A DNA stretch of 40,000 bases from Clostridia bacterium (GTDB lineage: Bacteria > Bacillota > Clostridia > TANB77 > CAG-508): positions 6,439-46,438 of the forward strand of contig JAAWOE010000011.1 in the NCBI GenBank assembly GCA_022799315.1, given 5' to 3'. Below the pieces are notes generated by a model, which was given only the letters and a program-made list of their open reading frames with translations, was not told the origin of the DNA and did no database searches. A program made the translations under genes and the position numbers. Of the stretch, positions 236-7,664 are shown piece after piece (within the stretch, counting starts at the first letter, position 1; the number at the start of each line of letters is the position of its first letter).

Positions 236-3059
236 ATGAACGATAAAATAGTAATTAAGGGAGCAAAAGAACACAATCTAAAAAATATAAATTTAGAAAT
301 TCCAAGAGATAAACTAGTAGTAGTTACAGGTCTTTCAGGTTCACGGAAAATCATCTCTTGCGTTTGATACATTATATGCAGAAGGGCAAAGAAGATACGT
401 AGAAAGTTTATCTAGTTATGCAAGACAATTCTTAGGATTAATGGAAAAACCAGATGTAGAATTAATAGAGGGATTATCACCAGCAATTTCAATAGACCAA
501 AAAACAACCTCAAGAAATCCTCGTTCTACAGTAGGAACTGTAACAGAAATATATGATTATATTCGTTTACTATATGCAAGAATTGGTGTACCATATTGTC
601 CAAACTGTGGTAAGAAAATTGAAAAACAATCAATAGACCAAATTGTAGATAACATTATGAGTTTAGATGAAGGAACAAAAATACAAGTATTAGCACCAGT
701 AATTCACAATAGAAAAGGTGAATTTACAAAGCTATTAGCAGATTTTGTAAAAGAGGGATTTGTTCGTGCAAGAATAGATGGAGAAACAGTAGAACTAACA
801 GACGATTTAGAATTAGATAGGAAGAAAAAACACAATGTTCAAATAATTGTAGACCGTTTAGTAATTAAAGAAGATATTAGAAACCGTTTAGCAGAATCTG
901 TAGAAATTGCAATGAAACATGCAAATCAATTAGTGTTAATAGATGTTGTTGGACAAGAAGAAAAACTATTTAGCGGTAATTATGCATGTCCTGATTGTGG
1001 TATAAGTTTTCCAGAGTTGTCGCCAAGAATGTTTTCATTCAATAATCCAGTAGGAGCATGTCCAACTTGTACAGGTATTGGTTTTCTAATGAAAATGGAT
1101 GAAGATTTAATAATACCAGATAAAAATAAAACTCTATATGATGGTGTAAAAGCATTTGGAGCAAGCACTATGAAAAAAGGCGATACTATGGCTAAAATGT
1201 ATTTTGAAAGTATAGCACGTCATTATGGAGTAGATATAAAGCAACCAATTAAAAAATTACCAAGGGAATTCTTAGATAAAATTTTATATGGTACAGGTGA
1301 TGAAGAAATAGATTTTGAATATACTTCAGCTGCAGGAACAAGAAAATTTAAAGCACCATTTGAAGGAGTTATTCCAACACTAGATAGACGCTATAATGAA
1401 ACAAAATCACAAGGAATGCGTGATTTTTACGAAATGTATATGAGCTATAGTGCTTGTCCTACTTGCCATGGTGCAAGGCTTAAAAAGGAAGTTCTTGCAG
1501 TAAAAGTAGGAGATAAAAACATAAACGAATTGACAGATATGTCGATTGATAAAATAAAAGAATATTTGAATTCATTAAAACTAACAAAAAAAGAAGCAAT
1601 GATTGCAGACCAAATAATGAAAGAACTAAACCAGAGATTACAATTCTTAATGGATGTGGGACTTGAATATTTAACGCTATCAAGAAATGCTGGAAGTTTA
1701 TCTGGAGGAGAAGCACAACGTATTAGACTTGCTACTCAGATTGGTTCTGGGTTAACAGGTGTATTATATATTTTAGATGAACCAAGTATTGGATTACATC
1801 AAAGAGATAATGATAAACTGCTTGCTACTCTTAAAAAATTAAGAGATTTAGGTAATACTTTAATTGTAGTAGAGCATGATGAGGATACAATGTATGCAGC
1901 AGACCAAATAATTGATATAGGGCCAGGGCCAGGAGTTCATGGCGGAAATGTAATTGCACAAGGAACAGCAGAAGAAATTAAACAAATTCCAGAGTCAATT
2001 ACTGGACAATACTTAAGTGGCAAAAAGAAAATTATAGTACCTAAAAAAAGAAGAAAATCAAATGGAAAAGCAATACAAGTAATAGGAGCAGAACAAAACA
2101 ACTTAAAAAATATTAATGTAAAATTTCCATTGGGAGTATTTACATGTGTAACAGGTGTATCTGGTTCTGGAAAAAGTACACTTGTAAATGAAATTTTATA
2201 TAAAACAGTTGCAAAAGAAATCTATGGTTCAAATGAAAAACCAGGAAAATGTAAAGAAATAAAAGGTCTTGAGAATATTGATAAAATAATTAACATTGAC
2301 CAATCACCAATTGGCAGAACACCACGTTCAAATCCAGCAACATATACTGGTGTGTTTGATATAATTCGTGATATTTTTGCAACAACAAATGAAGCAAAAC
2401 TTCGTGGTTATCAAAAAGGAAGATTTAGCTTTAATGTAGCAGGTGGAAGATGTGAAGCATGTAATGGAGATGGGATTTTAAAAATTGAAATGCATTTCTT
2501 ACCAGATATTTATGTGCCATGTGAAGTTTGTCATGGAAAAAGATATAATAGGGAAACATTAGAGGTTAAGTATAAAGGAAAAAGCATTGCAGATGTATTA
2601 GATATGACAGTAGAAGAAGCACTAAGCTTTTTTGAAAACATACCAAGAATTAAAACAAAAATACAAACATTGTATGATGTAGGACTTGGTTATATAAAAC
2701 TAGGACAACCATCAACTACTCTTTCAGGTGGTGAGGCGCAAAGAGTAAAACTTGCAACAGAATTATCAAAGAAACCAACAGGAAAAACATTATATATTTT
2801 AGATGAACCAACAACAGGATTACACATTGCAGATGTTCATAAACTAGTAAATATTTTACAAAGATTAGTAGATACAGGAAATAGCATTATTGTAATTGAA
2901 CACAATCTAGACTTAATAAAAACAGCAGATTATATTATAGACTTAGGACCAGAAGGCGGAGATAAAGGTGGACAAATTGTAAGTGTAGGAACACCAGAAC
3001 AAGTAGTAAGAAATGAGCAAAGCCATACAGGTAGATTTTTAAAAAAATATTTGGAGTAA
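236..3059 (+). CDS. uvrA: excinuclease ABC subunit UvrA, full length only if C344 is skipped (+1)
   Basis: ATG 236 gives [36 protein letters not shown], then the frame breaks. The +1 frame continues [31 protein letters not shown] into the 872-aa ORF 441..3059, which has two ABC ATPase modules (LSGGE signatures) and CxxC zinc-finger motifs typical of UvrA. Confidence 0.9.
344..346 (+). other. 0-frame CGG / +1 frame break (TCA-C-GGA) inside the uvrA Walker A motif
   Basis: ggt tca C gga aaa tca tct: removing C344 restores GLSGSGKSS. The 0 frame stops 6 codons later. Confidence 0.85.
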
Positions 3060-3063
3060 ACTC

Positions 3064-3092
3064 TTGAAAGTTTCATAAAAACTATGTATAAT
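3064..3092 (+). promoter_or_regulatory. strong sigma-A promoter (TTGAAA-17-TGtTATAAT) driving the tandem-repeat RNA
   Basis: TTGAAA 3064-3069, 17-nt spacer ending in TG, TATAAT 3087-3092. Confidence 0.6.
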
Positions 3093-3144
3093 GAATATAA
3101 TAAGTAAGATAGTTAATCTATCTAGTGGGCTAACACTTAAAATC

Positions 3145-3248
3145 CGAGATTAAAGTAAGACATAGGGGCTTACAGATTGGCGAGCAATCGATTAACTCGA
3201 GATTAAAGTAAGACATAGGGGCTTACAGATTGGCGGACAATCAATTAA
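3145..3248 (+). repeat. 2 x 52-nt direct tandem repeat, candidate type III antitoxin RNA precursor
   Basis: Unit 1 is 3145-3196 and unit 2 is 3197-3248 (CGAGATTAAAGTAAGACATAGGGGCTTACAGATTGGCGAGCAATCGATTAAC), differing at about 6 positions. Each unit holds two small hairpins, GTAAG/CTTAC and GATTG/CAATC. The repeats lie between a promoter and a terminator, directly upstream of an ORF. Confidence 0.55.
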
Positions 3249-3256
3249 TTAGCAAT

Positions 3257-3305
3257 AAGGGGGAAATACAAATACTAAGGTATTTGATTTCCTCCTTAAT
3301 TTTTT
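3257..3305 (+). terminator. intrinsic terminator between the repeats and ORF 3322
   Basis: AAGGGGGAAATACAAATAC / GTATTTGATTTCCTCCTT stem (one G-U, one bulge), TAAG loop, then AATTTTTTG. Confidence 0.7.
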
Positions 3306-3321
3306 GTAAAGGAAGATTATT

Positions 3322-3927
3322 ATGAAATCAAAAAACAAGAAAGATGATTTAAATATTATAAAGCAAGCAGCGAATTTGTATGAAAAGAACTTAAATAATA
3401 AAACATTATTGTTTATTTATTTAAATAGAAAAAACAATAAAATCGAATTTTATGAAGTTACATTTAAAGATACATATTTTAAACATCTAACGGGAACAAC
3501 CACACCTATTAGCAGTAGAATGTTTTATAGAAAAGCATTAACAAATACATTGAAAATAGAAGATTTTGATTATAAAGATAATAATACAAATCTTAAATTA
3601 GATAATATTATTCGAGGAATGGAAATAAATAAGTATGCAAGAATGATAGGTTGTTTTGAAAATAATAGAAAATATTTAACATTGGATAAAGTAGCTGGAA
3701 CACAATATCTATCAATTGGTTTTGATAGTGATAAAAATTATAATTATCCTAAAACATTTTTAGTAGGAGATATAAGAAAATTAACAATTGGAAAGCCAAA
3801 CAGAGTATTATGTGTGCTATCAAAAAATATAAAAGACATAAAATATGAACAAATAGTATATATTGCTAAAAATGTTGATATAGAGAAACTGAAATGCAAT
3901 AAAGAAATACAAGAAAAACTGAGCTAA
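3322..3927 (+). CDS. hypothetical 201-aa protein, candidate type III toxin (nuclease-like?)
   Basis: ORF with AAGGAAG RBS. It sits immediately after the repeat-terminator leader. I cannot align it by eye to ToxN or AbiQ. Lys/Asn-rich, host-like AT composition. Confidence 0.6.
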   Translation: MKSKNKKDDLNIIKQAANLYEKNLNNKTLLFIYLNRKNNKIEFYEVTFKDTYFKHLTGTTTPISSRMFYRKALTNTLKIEDFDYKDNNTNLKLDNIIRGMEINKYARMIGCFENNRKYLTLDKVAGTQYLSIGFDSDKNYNYPKTFLVGDIRKLTIGKPNRVLCVLSKNIKDIKYEQIVYIAKNVDIEKLKCNKEIQEKLS

Positions 3928-4056: not shown

Positions 4057-4434
4057 ATGAGCGAAACAAAATTATCAATCACAAAAGAGCAGGCTGAAGC
4101 GTTTTCAATCTGGAAAAAACAGTATGTAAGCAAGATTGATTTCGCTGAGGAAGTTTTGCGGCAGGAATTAGGAAAAAAAGCGAAAAAAGTCCAGTTGTTT
4201 CGTAACTTTGAAGAAATGAAAGAAACGATTGAACAGCTTGAGATTTCCGAAGGCTCTGCCAAATTCTCGGGAGAAGAGATTACTTCAGATATGAGATTCG
4301 GATTTAAAGTATCTGGGTACATACATGCGCTTTGGAATGCTTTGTTTAAAGAACAGGGTACTAAAAAAGTAGAATTGGGAATAAGACTGTTTGAAGAACC
4401 GGCAGAAAAGTTATCTAAAATTTTTAACCTGTAA
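4057..4434 (+). CDS. hypothetical 125-aa protein in higher-GC cassette 1
   Basis: GGAGGTG RBS 6 nt before the ATG. About 40% G+C in a sampled 60-nt stretch versus about 25-30% in neighbours. One in-frame CGG (4159). Followed by a GC-rich terminator. Confidence 0.65.
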   Translation: MSETKLSITKEQAEAFSIWKKQYVSKIDFAEEVLRQELGKKAKKVQLFRNFEEMKETIEQLEISEGSAKFSGEEITSDMRFGFKVSGYIHALWNALFKEQGTKKVELGIRLFEEPAEKLSKIFNL

Positions 4435-7133: not shown

Positions 7134-7664
7134 ATGAATAATATGTCATACCAAGAATACATGAGAACAGTACTTGGCTATACACCATATAGTATGCAAG
7201 ATACTCTTTGCTGTACAAATGATTATTACATAACACAAGATACAAATTGTATGAACGATAGTAATTTAGAAGAATTATATCCAGATATCTATAAAAAGAT
7301 TAATCCATTAGTTTGTAAACAATGTAATACAAACACAATGCCAATTACACAAGAAATTTTAGAACAAATGGTAGATAATGTTTATAATTCTATAGAAGTT
7401 GATTTGAAAATAGAAACAAATACAAAACTACAAGTAAATGTAAGTAATGGAGTAAGACAACAAGAAAATAGAACAAGACAAAGTAATAATACATTAAGAG
7501 ATTTAATAAAAATACTAATATTAAAAGAGTTAATAGATAGGGGAAGATTTCCTAATAGACCACCGTTTCATGGAAGACCACCAATGCCAGGACCACGTCC
7601 ACCATTTCCAGGAGGACCAAGGCCTCCATTTCCACCACAAGGGCCAAGACCAAGAGATTTTTAA
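7134..7664 (+). CDS. hypothetical protein with Pro/Gly-rich C-terminus, possible spore coat protein
   Basis: TAGGAGGT RBS. C-terminus is RPPFHGRPPMPGPRPPFPGGPRPPFPPQGPRPRDF. Possible mother-cell promoter upstream. Confidence 0.55.
   Translation: MNNMSYQEYMRTVLGYTPYSMQDTLCCTNDYYITQDTNCMNDSNLEELYPDIYKKINPLVCKQCNTNTMPITQEILEQMVDNVYNSIEVDLKIETNTKLQVNVSNGVRQQENRTRQSNNTLRDLIKILILKELIDRGRFPNRPPFHGRPPMPGPRPPFPGGPRPPFPPQGPRPRDF

Follow-up and report, generated by a model that had tools for sequence, protein, structure and literature searches.

We analyzed a 40,000-nt stretch of DNA from a Clostridia bacterium (GenBank assembly GCA_022799315.1, contig JAAWOE010000011.1, positions 6,439 to 46,438 of the forward strand), here called the window and numbered from its first letter. 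Near its start lies a small mobile cassette consisting of a promoter, a structured RNA with two repeat units, an intrinsic terminator, and an open reading frame (ORF) for a 201-amino-acid (aa) protein of the PBECR4 family. This cassette probably belongs to a new type III-like toxin-antitoxin (TA)/abortive-infection family, in which the two-unit RNA would neutralize two copies of an RNase; RNA-antitoxin defense modules of this type III-like family appear not to have been described before. Judged by its sequence and covariation, the ∼155-nt RNA appears to represent a new structured RNA family. We rate as new the predicted toxin fold and the RNA class, as unusual the closed two-unit architecture, and as already known the type III locus grammar.

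Type III systems are defined, in the wording of Blower 2012 as quoted in PMC12283969, by one promoter, tandem repeats, a Rho-independent terminator, and a toxin gene. The window locus has this layout, which is kept in all of its relatives, and the type III TA-like arrangement proposed in an earlier, sequence-only reading of this DNA was thereby borne out. The cassette and its main parts are as follows.

3058..3916, plus strand: mobile cassette, promoter through ORF; extent set by 80% nucleotide identity to locus L006
3064..3092, plus strand: sigma-70-type promoter, TTGAAA-17 nt-TATAAT; 11 of 12 consensus positions
3103..3256, plus strand: structured noncoding RNA, about 155 nt; covariance model R1, 144 bits, E = 1.2e-27
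3257..3305, plus strand: intrinsic terminator (hairpin 3257-3297, T-run 3300-3305); minimum free energy (MFE) fold and stem covariation
3308..3315, plus strand: ribosome-binding site (RBS) AAAGGAAG, read from the sequence; 6 nt 5′ of the ATG
3322..3927, plus strand: 201-aa PBECR4-family protein, putative toxin and predicted metal-independent endoribonuclease (endoRNase); Pfam PF18813

The promoter boxes lie at 3064-3069 (TTGAAA) and 3087-3092 (TATAAT), with a 17-nt spacer. Promoter-like sites in the region overall were not above the number in its shuffles, and we count this one as real because each homologous locus has an equivalent promoter at this position. Of the strong promoter with an extended −10 described in the sequence-only reading, the two boxes stand; the TGn element is not confirmed, the TG at 3085-3086 directly abutting the hexamer, and no extended −10 was called. 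The intrinsic terminator from the same reading is present: the MFE fold of 3098-3325 (−59.6 kcal/mol; z = −5.4; 0 of 200 shuffles as good) contains its hairpin, its stem covaries across loci, and the hairpin reached a mean pair probability of 0.94 to 0.99 in those 13 sequences from which it, or its core, could be isolated. A simple terminator scan did not detect it. The 201-aa ORF has its own RBS, as had been noted, but no space for a separate promoter, and transcription reaches it only by terminator read-through.

The earlier reading assigned the ORF product to no recognized family; this was wrong, since the protein matches Pfam PF18813 (PBECR4, “phage-Barnase-EndoU-ColicinE5/D-RelE-like nuclease 4”) from end to end (E = 1.1e-21; 78.4 bits versus a cut-off of 27), residues 12-183 corresponding to profile positions 1-187 of 188. 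The protein is predicted to be a BECR-fold endoRNase, BECR-fold nucleases being among the comparisons that the earlier reading had proposed as a check. PBECR domains are predicted metal-independent RNases with an active-site His in a helix and a C-terminal Thr/Ser, and they occur in phage polyvalent proteins and also as solo phage proteins (Iyer et al. 2017, PMC5512222). Among 34 members (18 to 75% identity), H55, G58, K92, and P143 are invariant, and T145 is conserved within the close clade; the KHLTGTTTP segment singled out earlier occupies residues 54-62 and includes an HLTG motif that holds the invariant H55 and G58. An AlphaFold2 model based on 32 homologs reached a predicted local distance difference test score of 90 and a predicted template modeling score of 0.86.

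The impression that this protein is unlike ToxN, AbiQ, CptN, and TenpN also held, no such match having come from Pfam, PADLOC, a PDB sequence search, or Foldseek. Besides PBECR4, Pfam at E ≤ 10 returned only a weak PDDEXK_10 match; NCBIfam and PADLOC returned no match for the protein, and the PDB sequence search no relevant one. The best Foldseek match in PDB had E = 0.17, and ToxN, AbiQ, and CptN were not among the top matches; in BFVD, Foldseek found two nameless phage proteins (TM-scores of 0.67 and 0.74). PBECR4 is well represented in metagenomes (1,453 representatives at 50% identity, E ≤ 1e-3), mostly as stand-alone proteins of about 200 aa. A literature search, which did not cover a 2026 BECR preprint that mentions PBECR, found no link between PBECR4 and an RNA partner or type III systems.

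Upstream of the terminator, the RNA contains a tandem repeat with a period of 53 nt (Tandem Repeats Finder [TRF] score, 187; 94% matches; a second repeat search also gave a spacing of 53). The two head-to-tail repeats reported in the sequence-only reading are therefore real, and the period of 52 nt given there is not. The two short hairpins per repeat were found in both units: GUAAG/CUUAC (H1) at 3155-3173 and 3208-3226, and GAUUG/CAAUC (H2) at 3175-3189 and 3228-3242. We built a covariance model (R1) from local helices only and used it to align 28 diverse copies; inspection of this alignment revealed three pseudoknots (PKa, PKb, and PKc) that are absent from R1. The window RNA is the sole R1 match in the 40 kb, and its elements are listed below.

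3108..3122, plus strand: hairpin P1 (GAUAG/CUAUC); compensatory changes in 5 of 5 pairs (28 sequences)
3124..3137, plus strand: hairpin P2 (AGUG/CACU); stem 100% paired, 3 of 4 pairs covary
3128..3133, plus strand: P2 loop GGCUAA, which gives the 5′ strand of PKa; pairs with 3249-3253
3129-3133 with 3249-3253, plus strand: PKa, P2 loop with the tail UUAGC after unit 2; 97.6% paired, 5 of 6 pairs covary
3145..3197, plus strand: repeat unit 1, with hairpins H1a (3155-3173) and H2a (3175-3189; loop GCGAG, 3180-3184); repeat detection, helices covary
3181-3184 with 3196-3199, plus strand: PKb, unit 1 H2a loop CGAG with CUCG; 99.1% paired, 3 of 4 pairs covary
3143-3146 with 3234-3237, plus strand: PKc, UCCG at the start of unit 1 with the unit 2 H2b loop CGGA; 100% paired, 3 of 4 pairs covary
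3198..3250, plus strand: repeat unit 2, with hairpins H1b (3208-3226) and H2b (3228-3242; loop GCGGA, 3233-3237); repeat detection, covariance alignment

The H2 hairpin and its downstream partner have a classic H-type geometry (5-bp stem, 1-nt loop, 4-bp second stem, and 6-nt A-rich linker). In unit 1 the 3′ strand of PKb spans the boundary with unit 2; unit 2 has no unit following it, and its H2 loop therefore turns back and pairs where unit 1 begins. The PKa helix was predicted independently by RNAalifold. Together, the three pseudoknots are predicted to close the RNA into a pseudo-two-fold ring. Within each unit, H1 is variable and H2 conserved, and the A-rich unit boundaries (YYYG-AAAU) are conserved as well.

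Over all 44 pairs, 94.9% of alignment cells are paired and 35 pairs show compensatory changes; slid controls of the alignment are 28 to 43% paired, and none of 500 shuffles reaches the observed covariation score (0.535, versus 0.195 in shuffles). These data bear on the explanation that the repeat has its role in the DNA itself (for example, an att site, iterons, or binding sites) or arose as a chance duplication, with the ORF an ordinary phage-derived gene. The window copies are indeed 94% identical, as a recent DNA duplication would be. The units of relatives, however, differ and yet keep their base pairing, long-range pairs included, by compensatory changes, and the element always lies between promoter and terminator on the ORF strand. 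Even in the window, three of the four positions at which the copies differ fall on pseudoknot specificity positions (two in the H2 loop and one in a boundary strand). We therefore consider the DNA-level reading effectively refuted by the covariation, and give it almost no credence.

In distant relatives the two units are unlike in sequence, with the structure preserved, and unit length across loci ranges from ∼52 to 64 nt. Among relatives, TRF detects the repeat only in one that is 91% identical; it found no repeats in the distant loci because their units have diverged too far from each other, although they are seen when the sequences are read directly. Strong covariance-model matches always have two units, neither more nor fewer. 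The RNA is thus a fixed two-unit, triple-pseudoknot fold with specialized units, not an array of interchangeable repeats.

All 17 distinct loci found from the protein side (29 to 100% protein identity), including that of the Erysipelothrix phage phi1605, carry the promoter, RNA, terminator, and RBS in a common order: promoter, two leader hairpins, two units, terminator, RBS. The sequence-only reading had proposed asking whether each homolog is preceded by repeats of its own; at 29 to 100% identity all have a two-unit RNA and terminator upstream, diverged in sequence and alike in structure. The chromosomal neighborhood differs nearly every time: the 5′ neighbor may be uvrA, DUF1287, UPF0182, a penicillin-binding protein gene, VTT, a Cu-amine-oxidase-like gene, or prophage helix-turn-helix/M78 genes. 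Nucleotide homology to L006, which lies in another context, begins just 5′ of the −35 box, stops near the stop codon, and is confined to 3058-3916, so that a unit of ∼860 bp moves as a whole. No relatives were found in the plasmid collection. At 26% identity, L303 (2290-2470) is the most distant member inspected; it has a promoter, a leader of ∼150 nt, and a terminator. By eye, the hairpin loops of this leader are complementary to downstream CCCG/CUCC. The L303 leader may be a different partner RNA.

Phage phi1605 (MF172979.1) is a cultured phage; its copy of the cassette (RNA, 66.8 bits, followed by terminator and ORF) lies near a site-specific recombinase gene. The annotated start of its coding sequence, SER90K_81, is at 84789. 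An alternative in-frame ATG, which has an RBS, is found 69 nt further upstream, immediately behind the terminator; starting there (L304 2983-3609; MF172979.1 84720-85346) restores the conserved N terminus.

We scanned IMG/VR with a gapped RNA pattern followed by the covariance model. This yielded 15 strong copies (67 to 96 bits) in viral contigs. A PBECR4 gene follows eight of them (L196, L205, L235, L263, L273, L293, L301, and L251, the last seen only as an N-terminal fragment at the contig end), truncated PBECR4 remnants follow two (L284 and L294), and five (L261, L262/L272, L265, and L268) lack a PBECR4 gene. In the genome locus L005, the RNA likewise sits beside an N-terminally truncated PBECR4 gene. 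The contexts of the orphan RNAs are phage-like: a PhoH-like gene alongside, a phage DNA methyltransferase in the same locus, a convergent 2,659-aa ORF, a holin-endolysin pair on the 5′ side, or a tRNA-Thr gene immediately 3′. In L262/L272 the RNA stands alone, with nothing downstream on its strand, and in L268 (5113-5341) a tRNA-Thr(UGU) gene begins two bases later in place of the terminator. About 830 bp 5′ of the L268 RNA there is a serine-recombinase-like ORF. The L261 RNA (1952-2104, oriented) directly follows a holin-like ORF and an amidase endolysin and precedes a small ORF and a Fic/Doc-like ORF (HCFVDGNKRVG motif); this region resembles a defense/TA islet at the end of a prophage lysis module.

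Such copies help to judge whether the RNA is a purely cis-acting leader, a riboswitch or protein-binding attenuator that tunes PBECR4 through the terminator and has no antidote role in trans. Its position is typical of one (a structured 5′ RNA, then an intrinsic terminator and the ORF), the tail strand of PKa stops 3 nt 5′ of the terminator stem, and RCd22, an AbiF-associated RNA, likewise acts in cis through premature termination. Against this, Rfam 15, which includes ToxI and the abiF motif, gave nothing relevant at E ≤ 10 in the window region and no match at E ≤ 0.1 in seven divergent loci; the leader thus matches no riboswitch or other Rfam family, and such a match would have undercut the earlier reading. 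No conserved antiterminator or alternative pairing was found, the terminator hairpin being predicted to form with the high probability given above, and in close loci the terminator arms vary freely, whereas the RNA upstream of them is nearly invariant. A leader acting in cis also fits poorly with the stand-alone RNA of L262/L272 and with the RNA directly before a tRNA gene in L268, and the downstream gene, where readable and intact, is nearly always PBECR4, and the downstream genes never form a metabolically related set. We consider a purely cis-acting role improbable.

Among relatives of at least 29% identity we saw no intact toxin gene without the RNA. RNA without an intact toxin, and never an intact toxin without its leader, is the pattern expected of an antidote that cannot be lost first. 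It also counts against a further alternative: that the RNA is a positive partner of PBECR4 (cofactor, scaffold, guide, or sensor), or a noncoding RNA with a function of its own that PBECR4 merely matures. With its three pseudoknots and invariant architecture, the RNA goes well beyond what a simple decoy requires; the existence in phages of orphan RNA genes that have a promoter and terminator of their own indicates that it can act without the protein in cis; and the AbiF noncoding RNA system has been discussed as an evolutionary forerunner of RNA-guided Cas13. However, the RNA has no variable segment that resembles a guide, the parts that vary being covarying helices rather than single-stranded spacers; a strong terminator that separates the RNA from the ORF, and so yields an excess of RNA, is the hallmark of antidote dosing; and truncated toxin genes beside an intact RNA fit a situation in which toxin loss is tolerated and RNA loss is not. 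A positive partner thus seems unlikely, if somewhat less so than a cis-acting leader.

The antidote reading, which we favor, would work as follows. One constitutive promoter would produce the ∼155-nt RNA, and the terminator would halt most transcripts, leaving the RNA in large excess over transcripts of the downstream gene. The PBECR4 endoRNase would be toxic when free, and the two-unit RNA would bind and inhibit two toxin molecules or one dimer, in parallel with RCd22/AbiF and ToxI/ToxN; two protein copies per RNA are suggested by the pseudo-two-fold shape of the RNA. The conserved A-rich boundaries may be where the toxin cuts the RNA, and the reciprocal pseudoknots would then hold both pieces together. 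If infection or loss of the cassette stopped the supply of RNA, the RNase would be freed and the cell would arrest. The orphan RNAs of phages could be antidote mimics or counter-defense decoys, or leftovers after toxin loss. Strict co-occurrence, co-divergence, and RNA-only remnants are all consistent with an RNA-toxin pairing.

Several points weigh against the proposed family or parts of its mechanism. PADLOC has no model for the cassette, and the L303 leader gave no covariance-model match. Some of the orphan RNAs may not be phage borne, because IMG/VR contigs may contain prophage or host DNA. Finally, cleavage into interchangeable units is doubtful because, unlike ToxI and CptI, the RNA always has two units, each of them specialized. 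A bolder version of the model, for which we judge the chances to fall a little short of even, is that the cassette represents a fourth, structurally unrelated type III class: a BECR-fold RNase held by a single-chain, pseudo-dimeric, triple-pseudoknot RNA, whose halves recognize one another by programmable 4-bp loop-boundary helices, with the phage RNA copies serving as antidote decoys in an arms race.

Comparison with known systems places the cassette beside, but outside, the classical families. Like ToxIN and AbiQ-antiQ, it has one promoter, tandem and pseudoknotted RNA units, an intrinsic terminator, and an endoRNase gene, and it is a small mobile cassette on chromosomes and in phages. It differs in its toxin (unrelated in sequence, without a structural match, and predicted to have a BECR rather than a ToxN fold), in unit length (52 to 64 nt versus 34 to 36 nt), and in having exactly two specialized units with reciprocal pseudoknots rather than 2 to 5.5 interchangeable repeats. 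Blower and colleagues reportedly described in 2012 a pseudo-ToxI in a phage, which the orphan RNA copies recall. With CptIN and TenpIN the cassette shares a low repeat number (around two) and A-rich stretches at or near unit boundaries. It has no sequence homology to CptN or TenpN, and its RNA has in addition two leader hairpins (P1 and P2) and, as a third pseudoknot, a link from the 5′ leader to the 3′ tail. Repeats of TenpIN loci are often nonidentical and missed by TRF (PMC12283969), as are those of distant relatives of the window cassette. The cassette is not a member of toxIN, cptIN, or tenpIN, because these families are defined by toxin homology.

By analogy, AbiF (Abi_2/HEPN) with RCd22 (abiF motif, RF03085) appears to be the closest functional analog. 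It, too, combines a non-ToxN toxin with a single upstream noncoding RNA that has two motif copies; RNA and toxin gene are cotranscribed from one promoter, and a terminator stops most transcripts, as we propose for the cassette. The two abiF motifs bind an AbiF dimer, to which we liken the two-unit RNA, and AbiF/RCd22 occurs in prophages near lysis genes, where L261 is similarly placed. The differences are the HEPN fold of AbiF versus the predicted BECR fold here, the 36- to 37-nt RCd22 motif versus pseudoknotted units of ∼53 nt, and the RNA itself, which is unrelated, with no RF03085 match at E ≤ 10 in the window region or at E ≤ 0.1 in the seven divergent loci. The PBECR domains of phage polyvalent proteins share the Pfam family PBECR4, the predicted catalytic His, and the existence of solo phage versions; they are presented as injected offensive phage effectors with no RNA partner mentioned (PMC5512222), in contrast to the solo protein here, with its dedicated structured RNA and terminator.

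The viral scan also revealed a second, weaker RNA subfamily (26 to 40 bits) in IMG/VR (L212 7367-7538, L224, L257, L283, and L288). It has two H1+H2 units (GUUGGCAAGCAAC), both loops of which pair with a downstream CUUG, has neither the P2/tail pseudoknot nor a PBECR4 gene, and lies within a longer noncoding stretch; in L283 it falls between a skipping-rope RNA and a DUF3800-VIII RNA (both Rfam). A 69-nt × 4.9 repeat with an H2-like hairpin (L219/L247) was rejected as coding, since it lies inside a leucine-rich-repeat, tail-fibre-like ORF on the opposite strand; other matches of the gapped pattern (L227, L229, L274, and others) are coding or simple repeats and score ≤17 bits with the covariance model. 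The 16-mer pattern AGATTGGCRGRCAATC gave only single, chance-like matches in viral and metagenome contigs. A protein-pattern scan of IMG/VR gave no match; we attribute this to low sensitivity, because the gapped RNA pattern later found many loci there.

Some observations concern the surroundings of the cassette and a rearranged copy of its protein. The upstream uvrA (221-441) is frameshifted in its first Walker A motif, where an extra base after GLSGS puts (G)KSSLAFD into a different frame; this is probably real rather than a sequencing error, because the 92%-identical L001 has the same extra base. Just 3′ of the cassette, a 125-aa ORF (4057-4434) without a Pfam match has a GC content of 37%, versus ∼30% in its neighbors and 22 to 24% in the PBECR4 ORF. 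Relative to L001, a stretch of ∼300 bp (4118-4431) has been replaced, with colinear sequence on either side. A 176-aa ORF (7134-7664), also without a Pfam match, has a very proline-rich C terminus (RPPFHGRPPMPGPRPPFPGGPRPPFPPQGPRP). A 753-bp ENA contig (P0026) encodes a chimeric 146-aa product that joins a RelB-antitoxin-like N terminus (Pfam PF04221), in frame, to the last ∼90 residues of exactly the PBECR4 protein of the window, and so lacks H55; the fusion reflects either a rearrangement or a chimeric assembly.

Homology to ToxN, CptN, or TenpN is what defines the classical type III families (toxIN, cptIN, and tenpIN), and AbiF/RCd22 has recently shown that RNA antidotes can be used with other RNase folds. 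A BECR-fold member, if confirmed, would make RNA antitoxins a recurrent solution, not the quirk of one fold, and would give a function to the PBECR4 family. Repeat finders miss most members of the family, and covariance-model searches are therefore needed to find such systems. Its strong covariation and unusual reciprocal-pseudoknot topology make the RNA attractive for structural work and RNA design, and the orphan copies in phages suggest a testable link to phage counter-defense.

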